Assembly (NCBI GenBank): GCA_964035545.1
Contig: OZ037768.1
Location: 2,698,741-2,762,740 of the forward strand
Length of the DNA: 64,000 nucleotides
Source: Bugula neritina
Lineage: Eukaryota; Animalia; Bryozoa
Direction of reading: 5' to 3'
The position numbers and the translations under genes were made by a program. The notes beneath the pieces were generated by a model. The model was not told the origin of the DNA, did not search any database, and saw only the letters and a list, made by a program, of their open reading frames with translations. Position 1 is the first letter of the stretch. The number at the start of each line of letters is the position of its first letter. Below are positions 15,501 to 64,000 of this stretch, in pieces.

Positions 15501-15944
15501 GCCAGCTCAGTTAGCGATCAGCTGTTTCAGAAGTGGCTGCAAACACAGAAGATTGTGGATTGAAACTCAACAAAGGATCTGCATTAACTATTCCTTGTAG
15601 TTTATCAGCAACTAAGGTTTGAGCAGTGTAAAATTTATAGTATAGTATTTCTTCTTTCAATCTAGATAATATTTTTATTGCTTCTTGTGCAACAGTTCAA
15701 TCTGCAGCTGAAAATAACCATTGGTTAATTTTCAACATCTCATCAAGTTCAACTCTAAGTTCGAGTCCTAATTTTTGACTTCTTGCTGCTGGGAATATTG
15801 CTTGATTACTTTTATCAATATTACAACTTTTGTTTCAGTTTTATTTGCATAATACATTTGATCTTGTCAATATGAATATGACTAACTGAATATAGCCTGA
15901 GCGATGATCCATCAACTCTAACATTATCTGATTGCAGTGCAAGT

Positions 15945-18065
15945 ATGATCAGCAGCCTGACTAGTTTCTTGTTTGGTAATGGAGAGCATTCAGTGCCCAC
16001 TCCTGCCGAGTTATCATGTAGTCTCTATACAACACCAGTGGATGAAGAGTGGGTGCTAGTTGATAGAAGTAAGTATCTGGTAGTTACATGCAAGGTGCAC
16101 CATACTACTTTGTCTGTATTCCTTTTTATTCTATCAATAATCTTTGACAGCTAGACATGATTTTACAGTTATTTCAGCTTATATATTTCTTGTGTAATTC
16201 GGTGTGTTATATGCAACTCGAGATGTATGATTACTTGAAAATATTTTAGCTCCTCCTTTCAGTTTGATGTCTTCAATTTATGAAATTTCATGGGAAACTT
16301 GAATTGAATTCAAGATAATATACTAAATTAATTTTAAATCAAAGAACTGGAACACAATTCACTCTATGCTAAGAAGTCAAGCTCTCAATTTTGCACTGGT
16401 AAATTCATTTCCTGTATGGTTGCCAAGCAGCAAATGCCAACGTCTGCTCAGGTTTTAGTAACAACAATGCTATAAGTTTAAATCTTTTGTTAATTCTGAA
16501 ATTAGTAAATGCACACCTTTTCAACTAACGTACTTCTAAAGCAATATTGCATGCTACAGTTAGTTACATAATAATGAGGCAATAAATGCAAGCTTATAAA
16601 TACAATACCCTTGATCCAACCTGTATAGCCTGCCACTACCTACCCTGGTAATGTGCAGTACTAGAAATATTATTATAGTTACTTCTGTTGCTACTGTAAC
16701 TAGTATCTAATTAACTCCTATATAGGAAGGCCCACTTCATACTACATAGCTTTAATCTTCTGCTGGCATCCCATCACCCCAGAAAAGCTTATAAGTAAAA
16801 GTATGTAACTAGGCATTGCTAGGCAAGCCTCATTACTCATCTCCTATATCCTACCAGTATAGGCTGACCTAATCACTGCCCTGCCAATTCCAGTGCAAAT
16901 GTTGCCTCATATGTGGGCCTTGGCTATGTCATACTCTGTGTTAGGTACTGTATCACTTTGACAGTTTTAATCAATACTGATGCTACATGACATTGATTCT
17001 ACACAATAATTGTCAATGGTGAAATAGAATGACAGTTGAATGTCCACATATAGTGCAATGTTGTTGTTTGCTCCTATTGATATTGCAATGAAAAGGTGAT
17101 GCAGTGCGATATTGTGTGGTTTTCCTTATTTAGCTGTGGAAAAACATGCCTGTGAAATGCATTTCACGCATGATTTGAATTTCTTTCAATGGTGCAATAA
17201 ATTTGATCATCTGTAACTCAAATGGTAACAACAAATCGCTTTTCTAAATGATAGTATCATCTTACTATAGTAGGTAGTTTAATCCACCTTGTAGTTTAAT
17301 TGCCATAGTTGTTGTTTAGTGTTGAAGTTAAACAACATTGCATTGCAATCACGGCTGTAGCGATGGGTCAATGCCCTCAACTATAAACAAAATCAAACTC
17401 TTGAGACAGTAGATTGTACCACGTGACGCATTAATAGTGCACATCACGTGACATGTAGCTCCGCTCGTAGTTGATAACTGCACGTTTGGTTTTCTCAACT
17501 TATCTTGACTAGTAGTATTGAAATTATTTCCATTTTAGCTGAAATTAAAACTAAACCCATAACAGAGTGTGGTCAAAGCAATGTGGAAGAGGGTGAAGAT
17601 ACTGACAACAGTTCTTCTGGAATAAACACATCGCCAGTCTGTGGTCCCTCTAAGACTGCTGCTCTTTCCAGAGCTGAAAGTAGTTCTTCATTAGATAGCA
17701 ACTGGCAAATAACATTACCTTGTTTTAATGTAGGTATCGGTGTGACGACGGAGGTTGACCTAGCTGAGAACTTACTCATAGAGCATGCTAGTATGTCAGT
17801 CTATGAGAGTCTACCTTCAGCTTACTCCAACCCTGAAGGCGATAGTTCTAACGAGAGAGGAGTAGTAGCAGCTGGCAGACCCCCTCAGGCTGTCTGTCTA
17901 GGTAACAAACGCTACGACTTAAGAAAATTAGAATCTCGAAAGGCTAAGAAAAGCAAAAAAGTTGATACCAAACGAGCCTATAACCGCCGAAATCAAGTTA
18001 CGCACATTCAGCAACGTAACTGTCGTCGTCCTTCCCCCATCATGGTGTTCCAACCTCGCAAGTAA
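15945..18065 (+). CDS. TP53INP: TP53INP1/2 (DOR family) autophagy adaptor, 2 coding exons (15945-16068, 17539-18065)
   Basis: N-terminal MISSLTSFLFG, acidic LIR motif DEEWVLV, DOR-family signature ENLLIEHASMSVY, basic C-terminus ending RRNQ...QPRK. The phase-1 intron joins both ORF pieces in frame. Confidence 0.85.
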
Positions 18066-19412
18066 CTCAAAAGTTAAATTCTTTACTCACTGTGAGATCT
18101 TTGCTCCAGATTACTTTAATTTATGAATTTTTTAAAAAATGACTCATTTTATAAGTTATTCGTAAAACTTTATAATTTATGCATCGGCCCTTGAATATGT
18201 TTGAAATGGCTGATGAAAGGTGAAGGTTGCTGATAGAGTGTAAAGGTCATAACAGATATGAAATATATGGAGGAGTCCACTCAACATGATATTGCATAAA
18301 CTTCTATAGCAATTCTTCAACTTTCCAAAATAATATATAAAAAAATTATTTTTAGATATTCCTACTTATTGTTTTATGTAACAGTTTGTGAATTAATTTT
18401 TTGTTTAATTTTTTAGTAGCATTTTTAAAAATCTCATTCCATTACAAAGATCGTAGCTAATTTTCTCTTACTTTTTAAAACTCGTTTGGAATGTAGTTGT
18501 TTAGAATTACGCTTTTATCTGTCAGTATCTTCTTTCACCTAATTAGGACTGTCAACCATGCAGCTGAATGGCACTAAGTTGAATCAACTAGGCCTCATAT
18601 TATATATTAGAACTTTTCGTATCACTGCTAGATATTGTAGCCTGTTTTTAAAAACTTGATAATCTTGTACCTGTTTATGTGCTGCACCGTTTCAAGTTTT
18701 AAAATGAGAATTTGTGATCTAAACAGCTTTAAAATATCATTTAGAGCATAAAATTTTGTGTTCAAAGATTTTTGGATGCAATTAATGAAAAATAAAAAAA
18801 ATCGTAAAAGTACACCAACACTAGTAGTCTGATTACTATATAGTTGAATATATTTCAAAATAAATAAAAATTATAAAACCATAAATATATCAATATAACA
18901 TACATGTATATGAGATAAATAATAGTTGTTCAATTGAGCACACTGTCCACTGGTAAAGGAGGGCACAACTCTCAATATCAAGCCTTGGCACGGAATACAG
19001 CATCTTTCTTGATATTTCTTTTATTCTAAAAAGATAAAAGTAGCAGATAAATTTTTCTGTATCTCAAACATTGGTAACTAGAAGTTTAATATGCTAGGAT
19101 GAAAATCAACAGGGCTAAGGTTAATTGATGGAACTTCAAAAGTGTTTGTGGGCGCGGCCCTTACAAGCCACTCCCTCCCAAGGGTTGTTATCCAAACTAA
19201 ACACTGCAATTTTATGATATCCTTATTATTTTAGCATTAAATAACTAAAACAATAAAGGCTGCTTGTTGAACTGTGGGAAATTAGAAAATATTATAGAGG
19301 TAAAAGTAGCCTTACAGTATCAATTTGTACAGTTGTGGTGCATTGATGTAAGCTATGTATTGATCTACATTGTAATGCTACACATGACTACCAACTAGCT
19401 GCGAGTTTGCAC

Positions 19413-22400
19413 CTATTCTGCAGGCTTTTCTTCTGCAGCAGCGTCTGCAGGCTTCTGCGCTTCTTCTGCAGGCTTCTCTGCTCCTTCTTCTGCAGAAGCT
19501 GCTGGTTCTGTAGAAGCTGCTGGTTCTGCAGAAGGTGCTGTTTCTGCAGCAGCATCTCCTTCGGCAGCAGATTCCACTGCTGTCTCTTCTATAAATAGAA
19601 AGAATTGCATGGAATGTTTTAACTGTGTACTGATAAATATATCCAGGGACCAAATAACGTAATACGGCATAACTACACGCACTTTGCTTACATCATCAGC
19701 ATTGCAGCAGTCTATTTAAATATAGCTGCTATACACAACCTTTGCAGAACTGTAGGTGGTTAAAGCAACAAATTATAAAAGGGCGTGGCCTCTGCATTGC
19801 ATTGAGTGAAATTATACCCAAACAATCACTATGAGATTTTATATCAAAAGATGGTGCAATATCAGGTATTTCTGTGGTCAATTAATTCTTCTAAACAACT
19901 AATGAGTTCAAATAATAAAAACATGTTGTGAAATGGTGGGACGAACAACTTATGAATACCACAAATATGTCACCTTCTTCTTCGTCAGTATAGTATTCAG
20001 GTTCAGACTCTAAATATCAGCACAGGTTGTTCAATAGGGGTAAGGATTTATCTCAAAGGGTTAGAAACAAGATGCATTATTATCAGTACGTGCTGTACTC
20101 GAAATTACAAGCTGTGACAAACAATGCGAATGTAAGTAAATACAACAAGCACCTGCCAAGGTAAAGAGTGCTACATTAGCTTTAATGTAGTCCTTTGTTA
20201 ATAGTTACTATTAGTAGTTACTAGTAAAGTTTCACTAGCTAGTAGTTACTAGTAACTACTAGTTAGTAGTTAATAGTAGCAAGTAGTTAGTAGTTACTAG
20301 TGCTCTTAACACAAATGCCAAACCAGACATAAGAAATCTGAACTAGATGTAAATCTTCAACGCACCAAGTGCCAGTATATTATTATAACTAATGTTGCAT
20401 GCATCAGTTGTTTGACTCAACATTTGGGGTGAAATTAAGGAACTTTTAGCTTATATCACTTTAGTCAGATTAACCTAGCTGTAACCACATTGCATCATCC
20501 TCTCGCATTCTATTGGCTGTATCTACTTAAATTTACATCATGTATTAGTGCCTTTGTCAAAAACATCAGACCAATGCACCTGAACAAAATGTGTAGTTCA
20601 ATTTCTTTCATGCATTGAGCTGTAATATTTCTAATCCTATTTAGGGCTAAGAAATCGCTTAGCAACTGACCTATGTAGGGCTATTCACTGCTCTGGCCCA
20701 ATCAATACTGCATTAAGTTGTACAGTACAAAGTTCAATATGCTTAAGAACAGTACTCTGCAAGCGCTGCCTTCCAGGGGGCAGCTAGATCTGATGGTAGT
20801 GACTGCACAGAGTGAGTTATTGTAACTACGGTCATGTTACCTAAGGTTAGAGGGTAAGAAGAAAGAATAACTAATTAAATCCCTGGGGGCTTAGTGTGTA
20901 AAGTAGTGTTTTATCTTCAAATCAAAATCAATGAAACATGGCATAGTTAGTTAATGTGAGGGATTGTAGGATAGGGTGCTCGTCCATTTACTATGCTGCC
21001 TGTATACTGAATGATGCTTAGCTGCACTGGAAATAAGTGCGAGCTAGCTGCAGCAAGTACTTCTATGTTAGTGGGTGAATTTCCTGATCTCAGATGGTAG
21101 TACTGGCCGTGAAATTTGCTAGTAGTAGTCCTCAAGTAAAGGTGATAATACTGCAGAATTAATCATATTTACTCAAATAATACTTATAGAGAAAGTGTCC
21201 AAAGTGAAAACTGCAAGGATCCCCCACCCCCACCCCCACCCCCCCCCCCCTTTCCTTAGTAAAAACTATTTTAGCAACTAGAAATACTGTCACTAAAGTT
21301 TTAGTAGTAAAAGTGATCATAGTATGAGTGACTGTATAAGAGATCTGGGCAGGTATCAGAATATGTAATATTTTACTCTCAGTTCAAAGGAAAGATAACT
21401 CCTCATAAAATAACCTATGCTTAGTCATAAGCTGCTGTTGCCTTAGCAACGTGTAAACAAGTTGTGAGTTGAAAGAAACACAGACTGGGGTTAGACACTA
21501 AGTTAGGGGAGGGAAACGGTTAGCTCCACGACACTCTACTCGGACAACCAACAAACCTGAGGGCTTCTCAGCCTCAGCACTATCAGCCGCAGGTGCTGGG
21601 GAGGCTGCCTTTTCTTCTGCTGCTGCCGTTGCATCGCCTTCAGCTTGCTGCTCATCAGCAGCTGGCGAGGCCTCATTGGCCGGAGCATCAGCTGCTGCCG
21701 GCTCAGCTTCTGCACTTTCAGCTGCTGCCGGCTCAGCTTCTGCACTTTCAGCTGCTGCCGGCTCTGTAGCAGCAGCAGCTGGTGCATCAGTGGCTGGCTG
21801 TGACTCATCTGAGTCAGCGGGAGGAGAAGGTTCTAGAAGATTTTGTGAGCAAATAATAACTTACTGTAAGCCATTCACCACTAAGCTTACAAATAATAGC
21901 TCATTGTAAGCCAATCACCACTAAGCTTACAAATAATAACTTACTGTAAGCCAATCACCACATAACTTACAAATAATAACTTACTGTAAGCCAATCACCA
22001 GTAAGCTTACAAATAATAACTCACTGCAAGCCAATCACCAGTTAACTTACAAATTAAAATTAGTGAAATTATCAATACAGAACAACAGTCATAACAAATC
22101 AGTTTTCTAAAAAACTATTTATATCCATGAAACCCAATAAAATAACATAAAGGAATGAAGGCAGCACGAAGTCAACATGCTACACAAAAGGGTTGTCTTA
22201 CCCTGGGCAGATTCTTCTGCAATCGAAGGTTCGTCTGCAGGTTTGCTTTCTTCTGCCCCTGTCTGCTGATCGGCAGGAATATCTGCTACTTCCGTTTTAT
22301 CTTCAGAGTCTTTGGTGAATACAAAAATAAACAATTTTGATACAGAGAGCTGCAGTGTAGAGAGCAATGTATCTGGTGTAGAGAGCAATGTATCTCATGT

Positions 22401-25400
22401 AGAGAGCAATGTATCTTGTATATGCAGACTATATATCCAGCTCGTTGACAAAATACTTGGCAGACATATAGCAAGTGGAAGTAATATCCAAGACTATTAA
22501 GCATTACTATTTACTTCTGAATTAAAAGTACTAACTCTTCAGGATTATCAATTAAGCATAAGTTCTAGTTTTCAATGGAAAAACAGAATAATTATACTCT
22601 AGCACTAGAAATAACTTCTGCATCTGAAACTAAGTACATTGACTCTCACAAGTTCAGACCTTGTTTAGCAGGAACTTCCTTTGGTTCTTCAACCTCTACA
22701 CCTTCTTTTAGCACACTTGTTTCTATAAATAGCATATAATACACACTTTATTCTATAAATAGCATGTGACAAGCTTTATTGTTTCTATGAATAACATGCA
22801 TCATGCAGCTTCTTCCTAACAACTAATAATATGAAACACACTTGTATCTATAAACAACATTTAACCTAAAAAATGTAAATGTATTGTTTCAAATTAATGT
22901 TACTTTTTGTATTTTTTCCACATAATAAGATATTAATTTATTATTAAACTGTTAACACATTGATAATTTATTATCAATATAGTTGCAGTTGAACTTTTGA
23001 ACTTACAGCAAAAAGATCTGCACATGATGGGTAATTACTAAAATAATTATAATCTATAGCCTCTGTAAGAAATAGCCTTAGGCTATTAGCTACAAGCATA
23101 ACTCAAGAGAATTCTGATTGATAGGAATTTTGCCATGATTGCCTATTGACATGCATGCAGGCAATTAGGATTAGAGGTACGTGTGGGAGTTGTTCACACA
23201 CGCAAACTTATTTGTAAAGAAATTGTATGAGTTACGTCTATTAATTTTTTTGTAGCTTTAGAGCAGATACAAGAAGCATAAAGAATAAACAAAAAGGAAA
23301 ATTAGCCTGGGAAATAAACAACATATGCATGCCTAGAGCTACCAACAATCTGCATGGATCTAAAATGTATACAAACCTTCAGGTGAATCTAAAATTACAT
23401 AATTATACTGAGTCAAGTTTTTTTACCATTAGATGTTTCACATCTGCTAAATCATCATAACATTACGCAGTATAATATCTTGAGGGCTAATATATATATA
23501 AATAGCATGCTTGTATAACCTACTAACCTACTTTTATAGGAGGTTACTTTTACTATTGGCATGTTTTGCATATGCAATGCTTATATTAATAGAATGCATA
23601 GAACACAGATAAAACCTCAAACCGATAGTAAAAAGTTTTATGGGACATGAGCGAAAATTCCTACATCATTCTAAGGGCATGTAATGTGTATAGGTGAGTA
23701 ACGTGTAGGTATCTACAGGTAAGTAACATGTAGATATCTACAGGTAAGCTACATGTAGATATCTGCAAGTAAGTAGCATGTAGATGTCTACACTCTTTTA
23801 TAGGAATCCAACCTAGAGGTCTACACAATTTGTAGCACCATCTAAGTATAGCATGTTTATTGATTGCATGTTTATATATTGATGGCGCCTAATTTTGCTA
23901 TAATTCCCCTGTAGACCAACTGGTTATATAAAGTAATCATGTAACAGTGGTACACCTCCTTTGGGGTTTTACCTCCTATGGCTTTCACACTCATAGCTAT
24001 CACATGAACAGTATTATAATATATTCATGCGTAATGTAGCATAATTATGTAGAAGAAGCAGTACTGCGCTTATATTATCATAACTGCATTATATGTATAT
24101 GATGAATTATATACCAGAACACTTACGTCTGTCTAGTTTGCCATTTTGGCTAGTCTTCACATCCCCAAAGATCTCTCCAATGACAAGCTGGGCGTCCTCT
24201 GCTGTTGAGGGTCCGTGAACAGCGTTGGCCTTGACATCAGAGCCGAACTGAGCGCGAATGCTGAATTAGTAAACAGTAAATAACAAGTTAACTATTTATT
24301 ATACCAATTGATGAGTGAAGAAACTTAAATACTGTGCCAATAGCTACTGTGGAGCCCTTTTTATAGTTACTCAAATACAGTCAAGATATTAACAATGACT
24401 AATTATATATTGTGCTTTTTCTTAGAAAAATAAATTACCTTCGTTTGAGAATTAAGTGATGTATTTTGTGTGTTTGCTATTTTTACTTGATATAACAATA
24501 TAGATATAAAACAGGTTATAATAAAAATAAAATAATGTTATATAGGATAGCAATAGTCTATATAACCCTATAATAATATATTACTATATAATATTCATAA
24601 TATAAATCAATATGACTCACCTATGTGGTGCTTTCTCTTTGGCTTCATTAGGATCTGTAGGACCAATCACACCTCTCCAATTTTCTACAGCATCTTCCTT
24701 AGACAGCACCATAAATAGTGTCGGCCCGCTACAAGACCAAAAGGTGAGTCATATTTCTTTTAATAACATTCATTATTCAATGACCGGTATGAATAAATAA
24801 GCTACAGGCTATAATTTATATGAAAGAGCTGGTAAAGAAGTTGTATTAAAGTTGCAGATTCTAGAATATTCTATTTATAGAAGAATGGCTATAAATGTTA
24901 CCAGATGTATAAAATGCAGTACAAAACATAAGACTATAACGAGAGAAGACAGGTTAATATATTATAATTAAATATACTATTTATTTCATCAAGGGTTATC
25001 TCACCTTGTCATATGCTCAATAAGGTCATTATAGTATTCCTTATCAGCATTCTGTTTGTAGAGCATCTCAGCAATGTCTTTAGTGAGAGTTGTCTCCTTT
25101 CTAGCCGCCACGTGGAATCCAGCTTCTTTGATTTTATCCAGAATGACATCTAGAAGTTTTGCAACATTGTTTTTATATAACATGACATGATATCTGAACA
25201 AACTTGGCATACTTAATTTTAAAAAAAAATGTTAATATGTTTATATACATAATAATAACGTATAAGTAAATCAACCAGTAATAATCTGCTTAACAAAAAG
25301 TTACCGAAAGTTTATATTACATCTGCAAGAAGAGAAAATGCTGCACAAATCAAAAAGTTCAAAAGAAGGAAATCACAAATATTTCTGAGAAATAGTTAGA

Positions 25401-28400
25401 GCTGTAAATAGAAGTTCCACGTCTGCTTGAAATAATTTACATAAAATTGATAAAATACATTAACCATCATTATGCGGTCAACTGAAAATATTTTACATAT
25501 TACATCATTAAATTACTGATCTGATGCATAACTAGGAGAGTATTAAGAAGCGTTACCTTTGTTATCATAGGCATCAGGTTTAATGACTGCTACTGTCTGC
25601 TGCATCGGGAAAAAGTAATTCAGTTCCTCTTCGGCCTTTGACGTACTGTCGGAACCGTGGAGCATGTTCACTTCTGTTCCTTCTGCAGACAAGAATACTC
25701 AGCTGAGTTGATGTAGACTGAGCACCATAAACTCTACTCATTTGAATTAATATAGACTGAGCACCATAAACTTCCTTAGTTTCAATAGCCTTGTGTAATT
25801 TTCAATAAAAAAGACTCGGACTGAGAATATGTCAATGCAATGAAAAAAGCAAAAGTGTGTACAACATTAATAAACTTTCAAATGGAGATTATGTATATAT
25901 ACTAAAATTATATTTTCGAAAAGATTTCAAAAATTGATTGATTGAACTAAAATATGAATCTAATCAAACTTCACCTATAGAAAACTGAGCTCGTAGACTC
26001 TCAGGGGCTTGTTCTTTGGCTTCAGAAACTGTGGGCGGTCCTAATAGCTTCCTCCATTCAGATATCGCATCGTTACGGGCTAGACCTAAGGCTAATACTG
26101 GTCCACTGTATTAAAACAATCAATTCACTGAAATTACATCTTTTATAGAACAACTTAAAAATTTCAGAAACAAGAGAGTATAACTTTAATTATCATATCT
26201 TTTGAAACAAATAGAGAAAACTATATATTAATAAGGTGACTTTATAAAATTATTTGTAAGTCCCCACTCATACACCTGGCCATCACTCCATTCAAAATAT
26301 TATTTATTTGGCTTACCCAGTCATTTTTGCTATTAGTTCCTCAAAGTAAGGTTGTTCCATATGCTCTTTGTAAAAGTTCTCTGCCTGTTCTCTGGAAAGC
26401 TGAATTTCTTTTTGTAAAGCTATTTCAAAGCCGGCCTCTTCTATGCGTTTCAATATTTCATCTAAACAAAAGAAATAATGACGTACATTCAGATTTTTTA
26501 ACGTTATGGAACTGGTTTAAAATTTGATATATGCCATTTGAAAAAAATGCCAATTGCCATATTTGCAGGAGCATAAAACAGTTTTAAAAATAAAGTAGTT
26601 CAATTTAAATTCCATTTAAGATCGATTTATATATAAGTTTTAAATAAAACAACTAACAGAAGAATGACATAAGAAACTAAAATGTTTTATAACTCCATTT
26701 TGCATTGAGGGCTAGAATCTCATTCTACAGTGAAATTCTCATTTTGATTTTAAAGTAAATTAAATTTTGCCAATAATAAATGCAATTAGCATATATCAAC
26801 ATTTTAGTATGTGAGGACACAAACCTTTCTTTTCAACAAGTGCGTCTGGTCGGATGAGGGCTAGTGTCCTTTGCACCCCTCGTTGGTTTATTCTGGAAGG
26901 AACGCCGTGAGCACCAGGCTTAGCCACCGAAGGCACCTGGTACTCTGGGAAGAAAAACGCCAGCTCTCTGTGGAAAAAGGTAACAGCATGTTTAAATTAG
27001 AGTAACTACAAGTCCATAAAATCAAATTCGGTTTAAAATTTTATATACACATAGAAATTAAAACTCCTTTTGGAACATTAAACTATAACTAAAATAATAA
27101 ACTAAGGCTTTAATTTGAACACATGATACTAATGTAAGAAAATATTACATAAAAATATTGGCACAATCATACTTTTAGAAGTATTTCAACATTTTATTTT
27201 GAAATATTATACAGCAGAAAGAAATAATTAAAAGTTAACCTGAGAGAGGCCTCATGAGATGAGAAATACTAAGAAGCTAACCTGATTGAGGCCTCATGTG
27301 AGTCAGAACCATGCAAGGCGTTGAACATCTCTTTAGTACCGTACTGAGCACGTAAACTTTCCGGAGCCTTCTCTTTGGCTTCCTCCACATTAGTTGGACC
27401 AATCAGCTCTCTCCATTCTTCTATGATACCCACTCCTGTAGAAATTTAGTAATATAGGGCTTATCTAATATATTCTAGAATAATCAGATGGGCTGCAGTT
27501 AGTGCAGCATAATTTCAAAAAATAATTTCATGAAAACTTTGAAAATAAATATGAACTCAATGTGTAATAATTCGTAAAAAAAAACAGGTAAAACTCATCA
27601 AAATAAATAAATCGGACATGACGTGTTGTCATTGAGCTCTACTCATAGATTATATTACCAGCAAACTCTACACATTGATTATATGCACTGAAAGATTAAC
27701 TGGATAAAGAGACACTGCAGGTAAATAATACTGTGGTTGCTATATCTAATATTAAAAGCATATTATCATACCTGCCCCTGCATAAAGTAAAACACAACAA
27801 TCAAGAATTATCTTACACACAAGTAAAAACTGATAAGATATATAGTTTCATATATGATGATGTTTAGCAGACACACATGCAGGTATAATAAATTATATTT
27901 CTTTTTCTAAGTAAGCTAAAGCAATTGAAAATTAATCTTGTCAGACTTTAAATAGCTTGTATTCTTAATAAAAAATGCATTCAAAAATTCAGATAACGAT
28001 TGTCTTCACATCTGCCATAATAGGATATAAAAACCTGGTGTGTGGTACTTGTAGTTAATCAATTATTAAAAAGAATATAACAAACATGTTACACATCTGT
28101 TCCTTTTTACAGCTCTTTTTCTAAGTTTACCAGAAAAGACAACTCTTAACACATTTCAGCTATAACTGTAAATAGCACAGCTTTAAAATAATAAAAATAT
28201 GAACAGCTATAATTTCATTTTTTATTACTGCAAACTGCCTGCTGTAAAGATGTTCACTAATCAGCTGTGAGCACAAAGTGGTAATCAAAAAGCTATTCAG
28301 ACAGCAACATTGCATAGTCAGCACCTGTGCAAGACTACAGGTAAGAAACTAACCTGTATCAGGTTTGCTCAGCAGCAGCACATGGCTTGGCCCGCTGCAC

Positions 28401-31332
28401 ATAAATTGTACCAACTCTTCGAAAAACGTCTCATCTTTCAGATGGGAATAGAAATCTCTCGCCTCTTCCTCAGTGAGTTGTCTTTCCTCATGTTTGAGGA
28501 TTTCAATGCCGGAAGCTTCCATCTGCGTAATAAACAAATGTATCATATTGTTACTGCATATTATGTAAGCAAATTAAAACTTTAATTAACTTGAGTACCT
28601 GTTTACATTACTCAACACGAATATTTTCTACATAAAGCTAAGCTACTTGCACTAAAAACTGTACAAGTACTTATATGCAGCTTCACACTAAACACATCGA
28701 AACTAGTAACAATACATATATGCTTTATGTAGTAGTATATACAGCCGTCATCCATGTAGCTAAAGATAGCAATAGTTTACAGTTTACCTTAGCTAACACC
28801 TCCTCTGCCTTTCCTTCCTTCACAATGTCAGGTTTAATGAGAGCCACAGTAACTTCTTTAGGCACCATCTCAGCTACAAGTACAAACATGACACACATGC
28901 AACATATTTATTAAGCCAATTATTAACAGTTATAAAAATTATTGGTCATATAAAAGCCTTCTATCTATAGCTACTGGAACTTACAATAACATCAGTGAAA
29001 TTTGAGCTGTGGCTTTTCACTCAACTTGTTTGAAACAATAAATGTTGTACAAAGATAGATTTTATGTTTGAAAAATATTTTTGAAAATTTCCAACACTTT
29101 TTTTATGTAGAAAATTTATAAAGCAGACAACTCTGCTTACCTTCTTCTGCCTTTTCACTGTCATCAGAATCTTCCTGTGTGGATTTATCTCCCTCCAAAT
29201 GACCAAACATGGGGTCATGAATCTCAACTCTCTCAGCCTCACCATTTAAAACCTTGTGCTCTTTCTTTAGCTCGTCTATTACAGTGCTGGAAAGGATGGG
29301 GGCGTTTGCGCCCCTCACCACGGCAACCAGGGCCCCACCCTAAAATGTTCACCAACACAGTATAAGCTATCAACTATCAAACTGTTTAGACTTTAGTAGA
29401 TTATTACAGCATTAAATAAAATCCTAACATCAAAATTTATGTGATAATTTGGTTATATTCTGTAGCATATATAGCATTTCCATTTGTGTAAAGTGTATAT
29501 AGTATATGTAAATATGACCAGTATGGAAAAAAAGATGGCTGCTGTTATATATATAAGCCTGTGATCTTACCGCATAGAACAGGAAGCAGGGTTCACAGCG
29601 GCCACGATACCTCTCCAGGGAATCTATGGTATCAGCTTTAGCCTAAGACATCAGAATAAGCAATAAGTTTTAACACTCTAAAATAAATTACCTGCAACTT
29701 GCCCTTAATTTATGTTCTTTGTTAACCCATTAGGCTACACTTAGTAGATAGTCTATAAGTAACATGCAGTGTTTGGATTCTCATACATTATATTATAGGG
29801 TGTTTAAAGGTCCAAACATTTTTGTTAAATTAAAGTTTTGCTAATTTAACAAATTAATTGCTGACATTTCATTCTGTATTGTAAAACACACCACAATAAT
29901 TTTACTATAACACAACTATAGGGTTACTACGAACAAGTTGTCACCATATACAATATATAAAAGGTTACATAGTTTGAAAAGGAAGGTCCAACTCAACAAC
30001 AAGGTTCAGGGAATATTTTTTATTACTTGCCAAAAAACCCAATGCATCATTTTATTTTATATCATGTTGTATTACATTGAAGTATGTTTTATTTGTTGAT
30101 TAAAGCACTGAATGAAAAATTTACTCAAAAGATATGTTTTAACTTACACAGACCTGTGAGTTAGTTACACAACTATAATTACAGTTTAAGTTTTAAAAAT
30201 TTCTGTAATTTAGCCATCAACTTTTTACCAATGAAATTGCAAAGCATAATAAACAGCTAAAAAATTGTCTACTTTAACAACATCTTTCAACTAGCATTTG
30301 AAAAAAATGATATTGAGAAATATGTATTTGAACTAACATTTTTGTATGGAACAAAATTTTGCATATGTGGTTTTTGTATAATAATAAGTTTGGGTTTTGG
30401 AAATATCAACAAATGGAGTAAACACAAACTGATAAATGCATATTGATTGGTTGTAACAAAAGGGTGACAGTGCTGAAGCTTTTTCTATACATACCGCTAC
30501 CAGCTTGAGCATTTTATCATGCTCTAGTTTTACTAGACAGTCTTTGAAGACTGTCAGCATGGCAATAGATTTGCCAGCCCACTCTTGATATACTTCAATA
30601 ACTAAGATATACATGCATAGCACAAGTTAAAAAGATGAATAAAACGTTTCTACATTAATCCAGCCTTAGAACCAAAGCTGGGTAGAGAGCAGGTAGACCA
30701 AATTGTTGCATTGAGTCTACAATGTGCAGGACAAGTTTGATTAAGATAACCTAATAAATAGCTTTTACTCGCTAGCACATTGTAGGTCCCAAGGCTGCAA
30801 AATTTTCTACCCCTTCATTTAGTTACTTTTTCTGCTGACTTACCATGGCAAAACGCAATAGATTATCACTTAATTCATTGCGCAATCTCCTAAAGTTAGC
30901 AATCGTAGCTTTACACTGCCCTGCCCATTCTTGGTACACATCAACAACTAAAAGATTTGCTTAGTTAAATAGCATGCATTTAGTTTGATTATTTCAAGAA
31001 TTATGTCAAAAAGTAAGCAACTCCAATGTCTTAAAACATTATTATATGCGGTAACATCAGTATGTCATACAGTTAGAAATTATAACCTAAAAATTATAAG
31101 CATAAAAACTCAAAATGAAACAATCTTGCAAACATGACTAGGTAGGCCAAAAAAGTTTTGTTGCCAAACATCACCAACAACTGCTTTGCCAATGCACAAT
31201 AAATAGATGAATGAATAAAAGTACATAAAACAAAAACTCACCCACTAATCCTTCTTTAGTTAACATCTCTTCCCACTCTTCTTGAGTTTCAATTTCTGTC
31301 TGCAAAGCTATTTCTTGCTTCTTTCTAGCCAT
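19413..31332 (-). CDS. NME8: Thioredoxin-domain + three NDP-kinase-domain protein (NME8/NME9, TXNDC3-like; outer-arm dynein intermediate chain type) with acidic Ala/Glu/Pro tail
   Basis: Exons (minus, approx.) 31332-31242 MARKKQEIALQTEI; 30947-30844 or 30601-30495 (TRX active site); 29642-29571 YRGRCEPCFLFY; 29339-29141; 28873-28788 TVALIKPD; 28522-28354; 27436-27282 NALHGSDS; 26966-26825 TLALIRPD; 26461-26318; 26105-25975; 25683-25557 NMLHGSDS/TVAVIKPD; 25149-25005; 24728-24621; 24261-24127 NAVHGPS; tail exons to stop at 19413. Confidence 0.9.
21437..21460. promoter_or_regulatory. RFX X-box adjacent to a forkhead motif (candidate ciliary enhancer) in an NME8 intron
   Basis: GTTGCCTTAGCAAC (21437-21450) matches the palindromic X-box consensus; GTAAACA follows at 21453-21459. 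Confidence 0.5.
21850..22053. repeat. ~40-bp minisatellite next to a minus-strand acceptor
   Basis: CAAATAATAACTTACTGTAAGCCAATCACCACTAAGCTTA, 5 copies. Confidence 0.9.
23693..23792. repeat. 25-bp minisatellite (GTAAGTAACATGTAGATATCTACAG) x4
   Basis: Direct observation; each unit contains the palindrome TGTAGATATCTACA or a close variant. Confidence 0.85.
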
Positions 31333-33144: not shown

Positions 33145-40426
<7,282 letters not shown>

Positions 40427-48274: not shown

Positions 48275-51200
48275 TATATATATATAATATTATTATATAT
48301 ATATAATATATAATATTATTGTTGTATTCTTACCTTCGTATGATGATGTGAACGTTGCAGTCAATGACAAGTACGTTACTAGTAGTAAAATAAGAATTTA
48401 AAAGTATTTCTATGGCTGGCCAGCCGAAACCTAAACTTGACTTCTAACATTCGAAATCTCGCTTCTGCCCCGCTGGGGGTATATCCGGTGTGACATTGTA
48501 ACACTAAACACAACATCCTCCCTCTCAACAAAGAACGGTGATAACCCGTGTAAAATAAACGTAACATCCTTTACCAGTAATATGACAGTAACAGTGAAGA
48601 TGAACATGGAAAGAAATAAAATAAAAAGTAACATATATGTGTAGAATCTCCAAAGAAGACAGGACAATAAGAGCTAACTGACTGAGTGTAGTAAAACAAA
48701 CTATGTACAAAGTAAGGAGTATCAAAGCCTCCTAGTTCATATCAAAATCTTTAAATCTTGATGGAAGCACCCCTCTACTGGACCTAACACCTCGCCTACC
48801 GATAGGGGGGACAACACTGCGAGTTGGGGTAACTGCTTTAACTTCCTGGTCTGACACAACTGGTGTTGGAAGATTGGGGTTTGGTAGCTCTTCAGTATCC
48901 GTTGGGCTAGAAGAGTCCAGCTCGGAACTAGGACGAACAATCGTGTTATTGGGTTTCAAATGAACTCGATTTCTCCTTAGGATTCGAGACCCATTATCAA
49001 CGAGGTATGACCTCGGTGCACCATGATGTCCAACCACACATCCAGGTGTCCAGATCTTTTCTGGACCAGCTCTCATAAATACTTCAGAGCCTAGGGGTAA
49101 ATTGGGTAGTTCCTTTGTCCGCTGATCGTAATATGCTTTAGCTGTCTGTTGTCTTGCTTTGAGAGCACCAGTGGAATTTACTGTACTTGGAGTCAGGAAT
49201 GCGGTAGTCGTCGGGAGTCCAGTTCTCAAATTCCTGCTGAAAAGCATCTCTGCTGGACTATATAGACAACCACTCAGTGGTGTCTCTCTGTAGACTAGTA
49301 GAGAGTGATACACATCAACCTGAGACTGTTCACACTTCCTTAAAAACTGCTTCACAGTCTGAACATACCGTTCAGCAAGACCATTTGACTGATGATGGTG
49401 TGGACTGGAGGTAACAATATCAAAACACCAATCCTTACCAAACTGTTTCATCACATGACTTGTAAAGGGCATATTGTCCGCCATAATGGATTTGGGCACG
49501 CCATGAATTGAAAATATGGATTTCAGGGCCATGACAACATGTTCTGCAGTTTTTCCACCTAATAAACGTAGTTCGGGAAAGTGTGACATGCAGTCAACTA
49601 CTAACAAGTAGTCCTGACCGCGAAACTGCATTATATCCATGGCTACAGTGTACCACGGCAATGTGGGCGTGTCATGAGGCATAAGTGGCTCCTTTGACTG
49701 CCTGTTTGCAAACATAGCACACTCACTGCACAGGCTAACCTTTGAATAGATGTCCTGATTCAGTCCCGGCCAATAAACAGACCTACGGGCTCGCTCTTTA
49801 CACTTCTGTATTCCCAAATGTCCCTGGTGAATCTTGTTCAACATTTCTTTTCGTGCACCAACCGGAACAACTAGGCGCTCACCTACGAAAAGAAAACCAC
49901 CAGCTTCATATAGTTCATCTCTTACCAACCAATAGGGTTGTAGGTTGGCAGGTGCATGACTACGATGCGTCCAGTCCCAACCCTCTTGGCACGCCTGCTT
50001 GAGATCCGACATTGTTGTGTCATCCGAATATGCCGTACTCAACCAGTCACTCATCTCACTTGCAACCTCCAGCGAGTGAACCATCACTACTTCATCCTCC
50101 AGGTCAGCTTGGGTCGACGGAGTCTTAGTGCTATACGCTCTAGACAGAGTATCAGCAAGATAGAGATATTTCCCTGGGACATAGGTGACCTGGGCTACTT
50201 CATAACGTTGTAATCTCAGGAGCAGTCGTTGTAGCCGTGGAGATGCTTTATGTAAAGGTTTCTTCATTATGGATAACAAGGGACTGTGATCAGTCTGTAG
50301 TGCTATAGGACGACCATAAACATAGCTATGGAAGTACTCACAGCCAAAGACCATAGCTAGTAACTCTTTATCAATTTGGGGATAATTGATCTCAGCACTG
50401 GTCAGGGCCCGAGAGCCATAGGCTACAGGCCTACCCTGCTGTAGTAGCACAGCACCAAGCCCAGACTTAGAGGCATCTACTTGGAGATTTACCGGCTTGT
50501 TTACATCAAAGTACTTCAAAACACTGTCATTCATGAGAACACTTCTGATATTGGCCATGGCTGATTGCTGTTCTGGACCCCAGAACCAATCCACATCCTT
50601 CTTCAAAAGGCATCTGAGAGGTTCAGTAATTGTGGACATATTCGGGATGTAGTTCCTAAGAAAGTTGACTGTGCCCAACAGCCGTTGTACACCATTTCTG
50701 TCTGTGGGTTCAGGCATGTCTGCAATAGCTGACACCTTGTTTGGGTCAGGCTTTAGACCATCTACGGACACAATATGCCCAAGGTAGTTGACTTCTTGCC
50801 GATTGACTTGAATTTTTTCTTTGTTAAAACGCACATTGCACTCCCGGGCTCTCTGCAATACTTTGTGGAGGTTATTGTCATGTTCCGCCTGCGTGCGACC
50901 GGCCACAATTAAGTCATCAAAGTATATGGAGACCGCTAGATCACCAAAAATCTGTTCGACACGTTTTTCGAACACTTCGGCAGATGAGTGAAGGCCAAAT
51001 GGTAGTCTTTTATAGCAATATCTGCCAAATGGCGTGTTGAACGTAGTGAGAAGACTACTTTCAGGGAATAGGCGGATATGCCAATAGCCATGCTTCATAT
51101 CCAGAATAGTAAAGTGTTTCATGCCATTAAACCTGAATGCAATATCCTCCAAAGTAGGAATTTTATGATGTTCACGTCGAACTGCACGATTTAAGTCTTT

Positions 51201-53578
51201 TGGGTCCAGACATATGCGCACAGAACCGTCTCTCTTTTCGACACAAACCATACTATTTACCCACATGGTTGGTTGATCTACTTTCCTGATAATGTCGACA
51301 GACTCCATCCGCTCCAGTTCAGTTTTAACACGATCCATCATGCTAAGGGGCACACGCCTTGGTGGGTGAATCACTGGTTTTATAGACGCGTCTATCGATA
51401 TATTATGTTCACCATCCAAGCATCCAATCCCTTCAAAAACATCAGGATATTTGGCCAGGATGTCTGCCGGAGTTATTTCATTAACTCTTTGCACAATTTT
51501 TAGTAACTCACATGCCTCTAAACCTAAAATCGGTGCTAGATTATTGGGAACCACCTCAAATCTCAAATTATAGCTCATGTCCGAATAAGGAAGACTCACA
51601 GGCAGTGTTACACAGCCTGAAGTCTGTATGCTAGACCTGTTGTACCCCAGGAGTCGGACCTTGGATGGTTTTATTTCTACACCCAATTTATTGGCCATCG
51701 CTTCAGTTACAGTATTTGTTTCGGCTCCTGTGTCAACTTTGAAAGAATTTCTTTCACTGTCCTTCAACTTGACATCCACAAACCACGACTTCTTAGCCTC
51801 GACTGTCTCTACCATTCCGATAAACAAGGTTGAAAGATTTTTATCCAGCACTTCTTCTCCAGTCTCGACTCCAACGGCATGAACGAGCTTTTTTGGGCAT
51901 CGTTTTTCAAAGTGATTTAAACCATGACAACTGTTACACTTTTTGCCATATGCCGGACATTTGCCGTAGACATGTTCATACGAACAGAATCTGCATTTTA
52001 TCTTCTTGTCAGTGGTAAGTCCACCCTTGTGAATGGGTTTGTTGACAACAGTGGCAACCTGTCTCATCGCTAAACTAAACTTATCCCCATCAGCAATCAG
52101 GCTCAGCTGTGCTTCAGTCATCTCAGTAGCCCGAATATCCTCTACGGCTTTTTCTAAAGTCATCGTGTTGTCACGAAGTAATCTTTCCTTCAGCTTTACA
52201 GATGTCAAGCCAAAAACGATACGACATAGCAACATCTTTGACTTCACACCCTCTGGAAAGTCACACCGCGATGCCTGTGACTTGAGTCGCTTTAAATATA
52301 CATCTATAGGCTCACTTTCAGTCTGCGACATCGACCAGAACACAAACCACTCATAGAGCTCATTTTTTCTCGGGTTACAATATGTATCAAACATATCCAG
52401 TACATCACTTAGTACCGTCTTACTTTTCCCAGCTGGGGCCTCCAACTGTGAGAAAATCTCATTGGTCTCGTCGCCAGCAATATGCAGAAACATTGCTATC
52501 TGCCTCCGGGATATGGCTGCATTGCCGGCAGGTTCAGGGTCTGTGGGATTCGCTTTGGGAGTTAGAACTACATCAATAGCCATCAAATAATTTTCAAAAT
52601 TTCTGCGGAATCGTTTCCAGTTCTCCGACACATTGCCCTCAAAACACATCCCAGAAGGCTGTCTGAGACCATCCATGACTTTATCAAACAACGGACAAAT
52701 TCACAAATAACAAAAGAAAACCACCACAATACTAAACTCAAACTGCAACCATCAAAAGAGCCGCAAGTTCAACATAAAAAGAAAAAACAAACACAAAACT
52801 TCAGGCAGAACAACAGCAAGTATCAAACAAACAATTCAAATCACTGGAAGAGTAGAGAAAAGCCGTCAATGAAATGATTGCTCACAACCAGTGAATCATA
52901 TAATCAGACTTAATCTGCAGCTGAAGTTAGTACGCGCTGCCACCATGTTGTATTCTTACCTTCGTATGATGATGTGAACGTTGCAGTCAATGACAAGTAC
53001 GTTACTAGTAGTAAAATAAGAATTTAAAAGTATTTCTATGGCTGGCCAGCCGAAACCTAAACTTGACTTCTAACATTCGAAATCTCGCTTCTGCCCCGCT
53101 GGGGGTATATCCGGTGTGACATTGTAACACTAAACACAACAATTATTATATGTATATATATATATTATATATAATATCATTATATATATATATATAATGT
53201 ATATAATTTAATATATAATATAATAATATATTATATATGATATTATTATATATATAATATAATATATAATATAATAATATATTATATATATTATATATGA
53301 TATTATTATATATATAATATATATATAATATATTATATAATATATTAATGCATAATATATTATTATAATATATATATATCATATTCAATATAATATATAA
53401 TATAATAATATATTATACATGATATTATATATATATATATAATATATATATAATATAATATATAATATAATAATATATAATATATTATTAAAAAATATAT
53501 ATATATTATATATAATATTATTATACTTGTATAATATATATATAATATAATATAATATATAATATATAATAATATATC

Positions 53579-55596: not shown

Positions 55597-57868
55597 AAAA
55601 TAGCACTTACTGCTTGAACAGGTTTTGTGTCTAAATTGGAGCGAAGATGTGAGGATATTGTCCAATCAGCAAGCTCAGTTTTATAGTAGGACTCCTCCCT
55701 ATTACTTCTCACAAATTTGATTGGTGGTGCTATAGTGCCATAAAACTACCAACATGTTTCAATAATAGAAAAAGGAAACCATGAAGCATTTGCAATAGCC
55801 TGTAATATAATGATATCTAATTTTATGTTCCAGTTTTTTTCACCAGTAAACTTTACTTTAGAGCTTAGCATCAAAGACTATAAAACACTCTACTATTAAG
55901 CAGATGGCAATGACTGGTCTGTTCTTATAGTAGCACTGTAAGAATTATACTGCGATGATTGCATATATATATATGTATGTATATAGCCTAAATCTTTTGC
56001 TTTAGTTTGGCCGTGCTATATATATATAGAACATAATTGTACTCTATTATGATTTCTCTATTATAGGTGCACCAAGCACCTATATATAATAGAGAAATAG
56101 ATAATAACAAAGCTACATTATATTATATAGCTAGCTGCTAGTACAATGCTTTCACACTAATTTGTGTTAGTTTGGGGTTTGTTTTACCTGCCATCGGGTG
56201 TATAGCCCATCTGGAAACTTAGATAACTAATACATGGTGGGGTCCACTGGCTATTCTATTTTAATGCTATTCTGAATGTATAGGCTATAGAGGCATACCA
56301 AATGTTCAATCTGCAAGTTACACTATCTAAGTAATACATTTTTTTCTCGCAAGTTTTATAAGATATAAAAGCATATAGCATATAGCTATGCCACTAAGAA
56401 CGCAAAAGGTGATTACATTATATAAATAATGTCTATGTTTTGTCATAATTTACTTATTATAAAGTTTCATAGATCATTGGCCATCTCCCAATTTTCAACG
56501 TATTTTTATTTTTTACTTTTGTTTATTTTGCCTAGCTGTTACAAAATCCAATATATATCAGAATAAACTTGCATTTTCATGCTAGTACATTCTCAATCTC
56601 AATGATGGTGAAGCTACAATATACCCTCTATTTGAATAACGTGCTGAAATTCAAAGTTGCTTACTCTGAAGAATTATTATTGTTACTGCTTTTAATCTTT
56701 AATAAATAATTAAAGTAGTGAACATGTAATTTCATATTATATATATGATATTATGTGGCACATGTTATATATATACTTCATACAAGTTCTAATTAATATT
56801 TTAGAATATAGTTACACTAAGCAGAAGAATATAAGCAGCACAGTGGGAACCAACAATAGTTGTAAACTTGTTGACTTACCTCATCCCTCCAAGAGCTGAT
56901 TAACAGACTACAAGTGTGGTAGTCAAAAGGGAAGTAAGTTAAGTCCATGGGGCAATAAAATCTGACAGACTTCTTTGTTGTGTGAGACACTTTTCCATTT
57001 TGTTCAACGTTGACCTTGTTCTCTTGGTCAGAAAGAAGGACATGTTCTCTGTCAAAATTATATTTTTGTGATTACAAATTCAATATGTGAATCAACTAGA
57101 TTCTTCTGTAGCATACAAAGTAAAACATCCATTAAAACTTGTTATTCAATAATTGTTTAGGAGGTTTTAGTAATAATTTTATAAAATTTAAAAAGGAGTG
57201 AGAGGTGCATAGTTTGGTACTGATATAAGTTTGAATATCATTTCTCTTCCATACAGTGAATAAATTAACACACTTCATCCTTAAGCAGGAGCTTGTATCT
57301 AATAGTTAATGTAATATTACCATGATAGGTTAAATTATAACTGAATAATGCATTGCTAACACCCAGTTCGAATATTCATATTGCAACTACATCTTATGGT
57401 AAAATGATACTTATACAAAATCCATTTGTCCGCACATACCCAGAATACATGATATATGGATCAGGTAGCCATATTAATTGTTTTGGAGAAGTATATGTCA
57501 GACTTAGATAGGGTCCACTCCATGCTAGTCTGTCATCTTCCCAGCTCTATATAATCACAATTATTATCACCCAAAAATAACTTTATACCATAGCTTTCTA
57601 ACGTTCCAGATAAAGTTTACTAACTGAAAACAGCCCGCCTCAGTACCGCCAATAATTAAAAACAGTATGCTGAGTACATCTTACTGTTTGCTGCAAGAAA
57701 GAGATGGTTATATGACGGTTATACTCATCTACTTGGTGTAGCCTGACTTGGCCATACTGAACTCCAACTTCAACATTTTTACCATTTGGTCTCGTCAACG
57801 CTAATACATCATTATCACTGAGGTGAAACCTTTGCTTTATCACTGCTTCAGCATAGCTTCTTGTTGCC
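43664..57868 (-). CDS. Divergent nicotinic-acetylcholine-receptor-like Cys-loop subunit, non-alpha type (gene A); signal-peptide exon not resolved
   Basis: Exons (minus, approx.) 57868-57685, 57546-57440 (SWEDDRLAW...IWLPD), 57051-56880 (Cys loop CPMDLTYFPFDYHTC), 55745-55611, 55226-55085 (M1), 45791-45700 (M2), 45321-45212 (M3), 44631-44506, 43843-43664 (M4, LAMLLDRI). The frame is continuous across all of these junctions. Confidence 0.85.
47130..47275. mobile_element. Small MITE-like element with CACTG...TAGTG termini
   Basis: Imperfect ~29-bp terminal inverted repeats with core ATGACTGCGCATCATGC / GCATAATGCGCAGTCAT, flanked by AA on both sides. Confidence 0.45.
48320..53141 (-). mobile_element. 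Full-length Ty3/Gypsy LTR retrotransposon (Mag/K02A2.6-like)
   Basis: Two identical 196-bp LTRs (48320-48515, 52946-53141; TGTTG...CAACA), 5-bp TSD ATTAT (48315-48319, 53142-53146), PBS TGGTGGCAGCG next to the 5' LTR (complementary to a tRNA-Leu 3' end), polypurine tract GAGAGGGAGGA next to the 3' LTR. Confidence 0.97.
48732..52676 (-). CDS. Single-ORF Gag-Pol polyprotein (Gag zinc knuckles, protease, RT, RNase H, integrase)
   Basis: CRFCSYEHVYGKC and CNSCHGLNHFEKRC knuckles, FKVDTGA protease, YFDD RT, VDAS/TDH RNase H, HQGH...CSEC and D-D-E integrase, in Gypsy domain order with no stops. First ATG at 52676 (the track starts at a TTG). Confidence 0.96.
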   Translation of the reverse strand: MDGLRQPSGMCFEGNVSENWKRFRRNFENYLMAIDVVLTPKANPTDPEPAGNAAISRRQIAMFLHIAGDETNEIFSQLEAPAGKSKTVLSDVLDMFDTYCNPRKNELYEWFVFWSMSQTESEPIDVYLKRLKSQASRCDFPEGVKSKMLLCRIVFGLTSVKLKERLLRDNTMTLEKAVEDIRATEMTEAQLSLIADGDKFSLAMRQVATVVNKPIHKGGLTTDKKIKCRFCSYEHVYGKCPAYGKKCNSCHGLNHFEKRCPKKLVHAVGVETGEEVLDKNLSTLFIGMVETVEAKKSWFVDVKLKDSERNSFKVDTGAETNTVTEAMANKLGVEIKPSKVRLLGYNRSSIQTSGCVTLPVSLPYSDMSYNLRFEVVPNNLAPILGLEACELLKIVQRVNEITPADILAKYPDVFEGIGCLDGEHNISIDASIKPVIHPPRRVPLSMMDRVKTELERMESVDIIRKVDQPTMWVNSMVCVEKRDGSVRICLDPKDLNRAVRREHHKIPTLEDIAFRFNGMKHFTILDMKHGYWHIRLFPESSLLTTFNTPFGRYCYKRLPFGLHSSAEVFEKRVEQIFGDLAVSIYFDDLIVAGRTQAEHDNNLHKVLQRARECNVRFNKEKIQVNRQEVNYLGHIVSVDGLKPDPNKVSAIADMPEPTDRNGVQRLLGTVNFLRNYIPNMSTITEPLRCLLKKDVDWFWGPEQQSAMANIRSVLMNDSVLKYFDVNKPVNLQVDASKSGLGAVLLQQGRPVAYGSRALTSAEINYPQIDKELLAMVFGCEYFHSYVYGRPIALQTDHSPLLSIMKKPLHKASPRLQRLLLRLQRYEVAQVTYVPGKYLYLADTLSRAYSTKTPSTQADLEDEVVMVHSLEVASEMSDWLSTAYSDDTTMSDLKQACQEGWDWTHRSHAPANLQPYWLVRDELYEAGGFLFVGERLVVPVGARKEMLNKIHQGHLGIQKCKERARRSVYWPGLNQDIYSKVSLCSECAMFANRQSKEPLMPHDTPTLPWYTVAMDIMQFRGQDYLLVVDCMSHFPELRLLGGKTAEHVVMALKSIFSIHGVPKSIMADNMPFTSHVMKQFGKDWCFDIVTSSPHHHQSNGLAERYVQTVKQFLRKCEQSQVDVYHSLLVYRETPLSGCLYSPAEMLFSRNLRTGLPTTTAFLTPSTVNSTGALKARQQTAKAYYDQRTKELPNLPLGSEVFMRAGPEKIWTPGCVVGHHGAPRSYLVDNGSRILRRNRVHLKPNNTIVRPSSELDSSSPTDTEELPNPNLPTPVVSDQEVKAVTPTRSVVPPIGRRGVRSSRGVLPSRFKDFDMN
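53147..54230. repeat. (TA)n/(TAA)n tract with ~235-bp higher-order periodicity
   Basis: The landmarks TTATTATACTTGTATAAT and TATAAATAATATAATATAATAATATATTTTATATGAT each recur three times (with minor variants). Confidence 0.9.
55491..55593. repeat. (TA)n microsatellite
   Basis: Direct observation; about 17 bp from a minus-strand donor. Confidence 0.95.
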
Positions 57869-63689: not shown

Positions 63690-64000
63690 CTGCAATTTTA
63701 CCCGCAAATATCTTTTTTTAGTAACACATTTTCCTGCTTGCTTTTATGTCAAATGTTCTGACGAAGCTTCTGGTGTAAAAATACTTTTAGTCTTAAATTT
63801 CATAATTAAGTATTTAGCCCAAGCTACTTGTTCAATCAGGAAAAAGTCACCTTTGTTATACAAATATAATGGTATATCTGCAATACGGTTTGTTAAATGC
63901 ACTAAAAGTATAAATAATATACTATATTGAAGCAAGATGCTATGCTATCCTTTCAAATTCATAGTCCTGCAATGTGATTGATCAATCCAGTATACTGTTG

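Follow-up and report, generated by a model that had tools for sequence, protein, structure and literature searches.

Gene content and exon map

The window (the whole stretch of 64,000 nt of Bugula neritina DNA analysed here) carries on its minus strand a gene that, by its predicted domains, is of the NME8/NME9 type, with a thioredoxin domain and three NDK domains. Fourteen of its exons were placed via RNA joints. Exon 1 (31242..31332, 91 nt), the first coding exon, starts the thioredoxin domain and ends in phase 1, with RNA joints at 31242. It is followed by two alternative exons, a family-like copy encoding WAGQC (exon A, 30844..30947, 104 nt) and a derived copy encoding WAGKS (exon B, 30495..30601, 107 nt), separated in the sequence by an intron of 242 nt (30602..30843). 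The constitutive exon 3 (29571..29642, 72 nt) encodes the CEPC segment of the thioredoxin fold, and exons 4–14 (24127..29339) encode the end of this domain and three NDK repeats (HGSD, HGSD, HGPS); all were delimited by RNA joints. Ala/Glu/Pro-rich tail exons, also on the minus strand, occupy 19400-22730, the tail extending toward about 19400.

The gene model contains the I[KR]PD motif three times and HG[SP] three times, which points to three tandem NDK domains. The model is 62–64% identical to the Owenia protein P0139 over about 598 aa, and 51–64% identical over about 600 aa to five proteins matching both PF00334 and PF00085, with 38–39% identity to a rotifer protein. The PF00085 cut-off was passed by the relatives P0228 (39.4 bits) and P0015 (30.4 bits); exon A alone gave a weak match below that cut-off (E 0.022), and exon B alone matched nothing in Pfam. 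Judging from the Pfam match and from established knowledge of the fold, the exchanged exon probably spans two strands of the thioredoxin fold together with the active-site loop and the helix that lie between them.

The original prediction, made from the DNA letters, was that A and B are homologous, mutually exclusive exons that exchange the thioredoxin active site. Recomputation from the sequence returned the same coordinates, lengths, AG/GT ends, phase (1-0) and peptides. The two peptides are homologous beyond chance, with a global BLOSUM62 score of 57 that none of 5000 shuffles reached (maximum 19), and are identical at 13 of 35 columns. Exon B has one extra residue and a Cys-Leu-Val in the helix. 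As had been noticed, the WCGPC dithiol is absent here, the attacking N-terminal cysteine being missing from both WAGQC and WAGKS, and B has a cysteine in the helix. The claim that including both exons or neither shifts the frame also held. Isoform A is open for 602 codons and isoform B for 603, up to the end of exon 14, whereas in the 14-exon model double inclusion meets a stop at aa 81 that has 12 junctions downstream of it, and skipping of both meets one at aa 32 that has 11. When the window was searched by tblastn with the peptides of 14 exons, B excepted, no further tandem duplicate turned up; the remaining cross-matches were to exons annotated within the three NDK repeats.

An NCBI protein named Bugula neritina (P0001) contains exon B with 100% identity. 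That model begins at exon B, loses the frame early in exon 3 (window 29642-29571) and ends at 96 aa; being truncated and frame-shifted, it leaves the gene mis-annotated in the public record, with exon A missed. Seven matches to an RFX X-box pattern were found in the scan, versus 4.3 expected, and none lay upstream of the gene.

Several other features were seen in the window. A DOR-family (TP53INP-like) gene at 15882-18065 (plus strand) converges on the 3' end of the NME8-type gene, and a TAF5-like gene with a weak TFIID_NTD2 match and WD40 exons lies at 34374-38283 (plus strand). An intact ORF of 1322 aa, of LTR-retrotransposon type, with protease, reverse transcriptase, RNase H and integrase zinc-binding matches, occupies 48732-52700 (minus strand). 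Two ligand-gated ion channel exons at 56817-63697 (minus strand) match overlapping parts of PF02931 (91-151 and 102-159), which suggests either two tandem genes or another duplicated exon.

RNA joints of exons A and B

Seven of the 11 matching runs were examined, from six samples and three studies; X11, of DNA type, was left out. No run is recorded as RNA, and those examined were treated as such because their contigs skip GT-AG introns. The four joints named in the original prediction, 31242>30947 and 30844>29642 for exon A and 31242>30601 and 30495>29642 for exon B, were all present in public contigs. Exon B was joined on both sides in 7 of 7 runs, with long contigs bridging it in X3 and X5. 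Joints of exon A were seen in five of the seven: both joints in X1, X2 and X10, one each in X4 and X6, and none in X3 and X5. These A joints had 19–28 letters on their short side, under the 31-letter bridging rule applied, yet they were exact at the GT/AG sites in five runs of three studies.

A feature that the earlier reading had missed is that B was the deeper form in all five runs showing both. Joint depth, of which contig depth gives a rough measure, was 176–180 for B versus 89–103 for A in X1, 24.8 versus 4.0–4.6 in X2, 11.4–21.6 versus 4.5 in X4, 9.5 versus 2 in X6 and 23.9 versus 16.5 in X10. Neither an A>B joint nor a joint skipping both exons was found in the four runs with a full joint list, in contigs that drop rare forms. 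The RNA joints support mutual exclusion. The runs represent a slightly different lineage from the window, with 40 differences in 516 letters in one intron contig and 1–3 differences in each of exons A and B; four exon differences were tested and all were synonymous.

Conservation of both exons

A search with a profile of exon B covered 1.84 billion representatives and gave eight matches, six of them of B type; P0299 and P0300 were unrelated and were dropped as spurious. Among the seven distinct B-type sequences, the window included, 20 of 36 positions are invariant. In a metagenome locus, L009, A precedes B as it does in the window, at a distance of 109 nt. Relative to this locus, at pS values of 0.65–0.69 that represent a near-saturated synonymous distance, pN/pS was 0.23 in A and 0.15 in B; the exons on either side gave 0.09 and 0.11. 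Both exons are under purifying selection.

At L009:2738-3057, a single stop-free frame (protein P0295) runs through exon A, the 109-nt intron and exon B, so that retention of the intron there would yield an in-frame double segment, which is not the case in the window.

The same exon in other animals

The arrangement also exists outside the Bugula genome, which the original prediction had not recognized. Five of ten metagenome loci have two tandem copies, namely L009 and four rotifer-like loci in which W[A]G[PS]C stands beside YGGPC, with copies 139–149 nt apart. In L004 a single copy lies between exons 1 and 3, and in L007 one was seen without flanking exons; L002 is a spliced transcript of one version, and two further loci show no copy.

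Proteins from the best 120 of 158 matches were compared as 21 groups by source, with counts of single versions limited by annotation. Among the matches listed, the clams Mercenaria (20 proteins) and Ruditapes (15) have five 35-residue versions each, the scallops Pecten (37), Argopecten (33) and Mizuhopecten (17) two each, and three bdelloid rotifers two each; another group has two versions differing at one residue. A single version was listed for eight gastropods, Magallana (3), Lineus (12), Owenia (5) and one further group. Annotated isoforms, consecutive accessions and location on one contig suggest that the bivalve versions are arranged in tandem, as read from protein annotations rather than genomic DNA. 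Among the matches listed, relatives from molluscs and nemerteans reach up to about 39 annotated isoforms, and these differ in length. Four rotifer models (P0022, P0107, P0252, P0270) combine complete or partial sequences of both exon copies and keep the frame; they are probably annotation artefacts.

In a tree of these exons, versions clustered by type across species, rotifer A and rotifer B grouped at 88/73 (unstarred), and exon B sat on a very long branch. A species-specific duplication, with the window's A as sister to its B, was rejected (p 0.0007, 30 of 65 rows). A clade of bryozoan A and B had a p-AU of 0.55, and bryozoan B with rotifer B one of 0.40 (30 of 65 rows), for groups named after the tree was seen and on 35 columns that fit independent and shared origin alike.

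What differs between the versions

Cysteine status does not track duplication. Across 65 exon sequences, 30 have both motif cysteines, 21 only the second, six only the first and eight none. In L009, A has also lost the second cysteine, so that WSGPS (A) stands beside WSGKS (B). In the three scallops both versions read WCGPC, with the motif segment 0.94 identical, and both rotifer copies have the second cysteine only. The clam versions read WCGPT, WCGLC, WAGPV, WCGQC and WCGPV, and most types are kept between the two clams; these conserved differences leave room for a redox element there.

The helix cysteine of B is invariant in all seven B-type sequences. In its place, a hydrophobic residue occurs in 58 of 58 other exons and Met in human TXNDC6, so the cysteine is probably buried. 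At columns 23-25, the basic Lys/Arg-Asn-Glu turn of the family is replaced by Leu-Val-Lys in B. At column 3 of exon 2, Asp is shared by A and 58 of 58 other exons, and Glu by 7 of 7 B-type sequences and both Chlamydomonas dynein thioredoxins.

In the alignments, the versions differ mostly in what would be the helix (exon columns 13-26), and these differences persist from species to species. Two versions of the same gene had a helix identity of 0.25 for the bryozoan type (2 pairs), 0.38 for scallops (3), 0.36 for the rotifer type (4) and 0.36 for clams (20), versus 0.67–0.93 for the same version across species. Single-version exons of different phyla were 0.55 identical in the helix (40 pairs) and 0.91 in the motif segment; the helix is thus the most variable segment even there, and part of its signal is background. 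Compared with single-version exons, the helix of A was 0.54 identical and that of B 0.16. An AlphaFold2 model of the relative P0228, built on a 28-row alignment, failed, with a pLDDT of 49.4 and a pTM of 0.29.

A likely mode of exclusion

Steric hindrance can block the joining of two exons when the intron between them is no longer than about 50–60 nt. The A-B intron, at 242 nt, is far too long for this. Comparison of the introns of the window and L009 revealed no conserved block, and no inverted repeats of the sort expected from Dscam-type docking-site/selector arrays that could be matched by eye between these two genomes. Double inclusion seems to occur in a relative, since protein P0015 reads through exon 1, A and then B out of frame, with 10 of 23 residues identical to the off-frame B of the window; P0015 could be an assembly chimera. 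Taken together, the length of the intron, the lack of conserved pairing between the two genomes and P0015 suggest that exclusivity likely results from a competing splice choice, with frameshift and nonsense-mediated decay as a backup.

Interpretation

From its human, Xenopus and sea urchin relatives, the gene product would be associated with the outer dynein arm. We consider it probable, with some reserve, that it is an outer-arm dynein subunit into which splicing inserts exactly one of two exons, and with it one of two binding surfaces for different cilia or flagella. Transcripts with both exons or neither would be cleared by nonsense-mediated decay. The thioredoxin domain would sit at the neck of a beta-type heavy chain, as in the human and Tetrahymena relatives, the swapped helix would touch a partner at this neck, and the choice of exon would follow the type of cilium, for instance feeding cilia versus sperm or larval cilia. 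This reading is favoured by the helix, which tracks the versions, by the binding of relatives to the beta-type neck and by the restriction of NME9 in mammals. In the available text of the papers concerned, TXND6 binds the DNAH9 neck (PMC10886578), LC3BL changes contacts between heavy chains during stepping (PMC8500839) and mammalian NME9 is restricted to non-sperm cilia (PMC11779644); the thioredoxin surface that contacts dynein is not named in the passages of the literature searched. Both isoforms co-occur in the whole samples X1 and X10, which we count against a choice by cilium type.

The original prediction had offered either a redox switch or different docking, and docking proved the better half. 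A switch in which A is a monothiol sensor and B is insensitive, splicing toggling redox control of beating, is improbable in our view. It would fit the second motif cysteine, present in two of three A-type sequences and never in B, the invariant helix cysteine of B and the varied cysteines of the clam versions; moreover, redox state is reported to modulate beating in Chlamydomonas (PMC10886578), and sperm that lack the NME8 thioredoxin domain are described as more sensitive to oxidation (PMC13256974). However, the attacking cysteine is absent from both exons, L009 keeps both exons without any motif cysteine, three scallops maintain two versions with the same WCGPC, and the B cysteine occupies a position that is hydrophobic in all 58 other exons. 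In addition, thioredoxin activity is reported as absent from human NME8 and NME9 even with an intact motif (PMC13256974, PMC2777172).

A neutral partition, by which the duplicates do the same job and have split expression domains by chance, their differences reflecting drift and compensation, appears unlikely. The exon phase makes any duplicate automatically exclusive and so easily tolerated, and a single version is annotated, among the matches listed, in eight gastropods, a nemertean and an annelid, with one genomic copy in L004; but version-specific residues are fixed across species at pS 0.65–0.69, over half of the positions of B do not vary, and the five types match one-to-one between two clams. 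We find it rather unlikely that B has changed its job and docks elsewhere than A's outer arm, for instance in microtubule binding or dynein assembly. Its extreme divergence (low helix identity, extra residue, no Pfam match, very long branch) is in line with this, as is a human NME8 splice form without exon 7 that is reported to bind microtubules (PMC8754002). Yet B keeps the hydrophobic pattern of the fold, and its greater depth in the five runs with both forms, together with its being the sole form in two more, suits a main structural subunit. As for B being a decaying, unspliced duplicate, an alternative raised at the outset, it is refuted by splicing in every run, conservation in seven sequences and the pN/pS of 0.15, and where the RNA lineage departs from the window in B, the one difference tested is synonymous; we give this alternative next to no probability.

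Beyond the binding-surface swap in Bugula, a broader and rather doubtful proposal is that in animals feeding by cilia (bivalves, bryozoans, bdelloid rotifers) this exon has multiplied repeatedly, up to five copies, yielding splice-selected regulatory faces of the outer-arm dynein, one per cilium type or heavy-chain paralogue. If so, splicing of one dynein subunit would help set the beat of each ciliary tract. NME8 is a human ciliary dyskinesia gene. The array amounts to a natural swap experiment, in which one 35-residue segment is exchanged in a shared protein and every combination of motif cysteines is represented, and it tells the redox and binding-surface hypotheses apart. It further points to a way in which a single animal with one dynein gene set could make cilia that beat differently. 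In the passages available of two reviews, the role of the outer-arm dynein thioredoxin domain is called open (PMC10886578, PMC13256974).

Comparison with known systems

No description of this exon array was found in the full-text literature searched, as far as its available text goes and with supplements and most subscription papers outside its scope, and no paper in that search joined NME8, thioredoxin and mutually exclusive exons. Public isoform annotations already contain the bivalve versions, without remark. Systems of this kind are known: the mutually exclusive exons of Dscam1, PKM, ACOX1 and others are alike in homology, near-equal length, phase and use one at a time. In clams the present array reaches five versions. 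The available text of PMC8373072 describes tandem-duplicated exclusive exons as having more than their share of surface residues close to functional sites, and the ACOX1 duplication as having arisen three times; NME8, NME9, thioredoxin and dynein have 0 mentions in its main text, and its supplement could list NME8 or NME9.

Homologous domains (E 1e-18 to 2e-9) are found in Chlamydomonas LC3/LC5 and Tetrahymena LC3BL. The closest solved chain, and the best PDB match of the relatives, is human NME9 (TXNDC6) in the axoneme structure 8j07, reported to bind the DNAH9 neck; the next structure matches are the Chlamydomonas 14 and 16 kDa outer-arm light chains and LC3BL. The PDB chain of LC3BL reads WSGPC, its first cysteine likewise missing, and LC3/LC5 have Glu at the Glu position of exon B, against Asp in 58 of 58 other exons. 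In contrast to the Bugula protein, these chains stand alone, without NDK domains, and in Chlamydomonas they are two separate genes with intact dithiols.

Human NME8 (TXNDC3, SPTRX2, DNAI8), sea urchin IC1 and Ciona IC3 share the thioredoxin and three NDK domains and are reported as an outer-arm dynein subunit (PMC8754002, PMC2777172). The available text on them mentions no duplicated, exchangeable active-site exon, and WCGPC is degenerate in the Bugula gene. A functionally relevant splice variant, TXNDC3d7, exists for human NME8 too, but this is reported as an exon skip. With NME9 found only in non-sperm cilia, according to the text available, mammals too would vary this subunit by cilium type. 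The means differ: mammals are reported to have duplicated the whole gene, giving the NME8/NME9 pair (PMC2777172), whereas in Bugula a single 35-residue exon is doubled and all else in the protein is shared.
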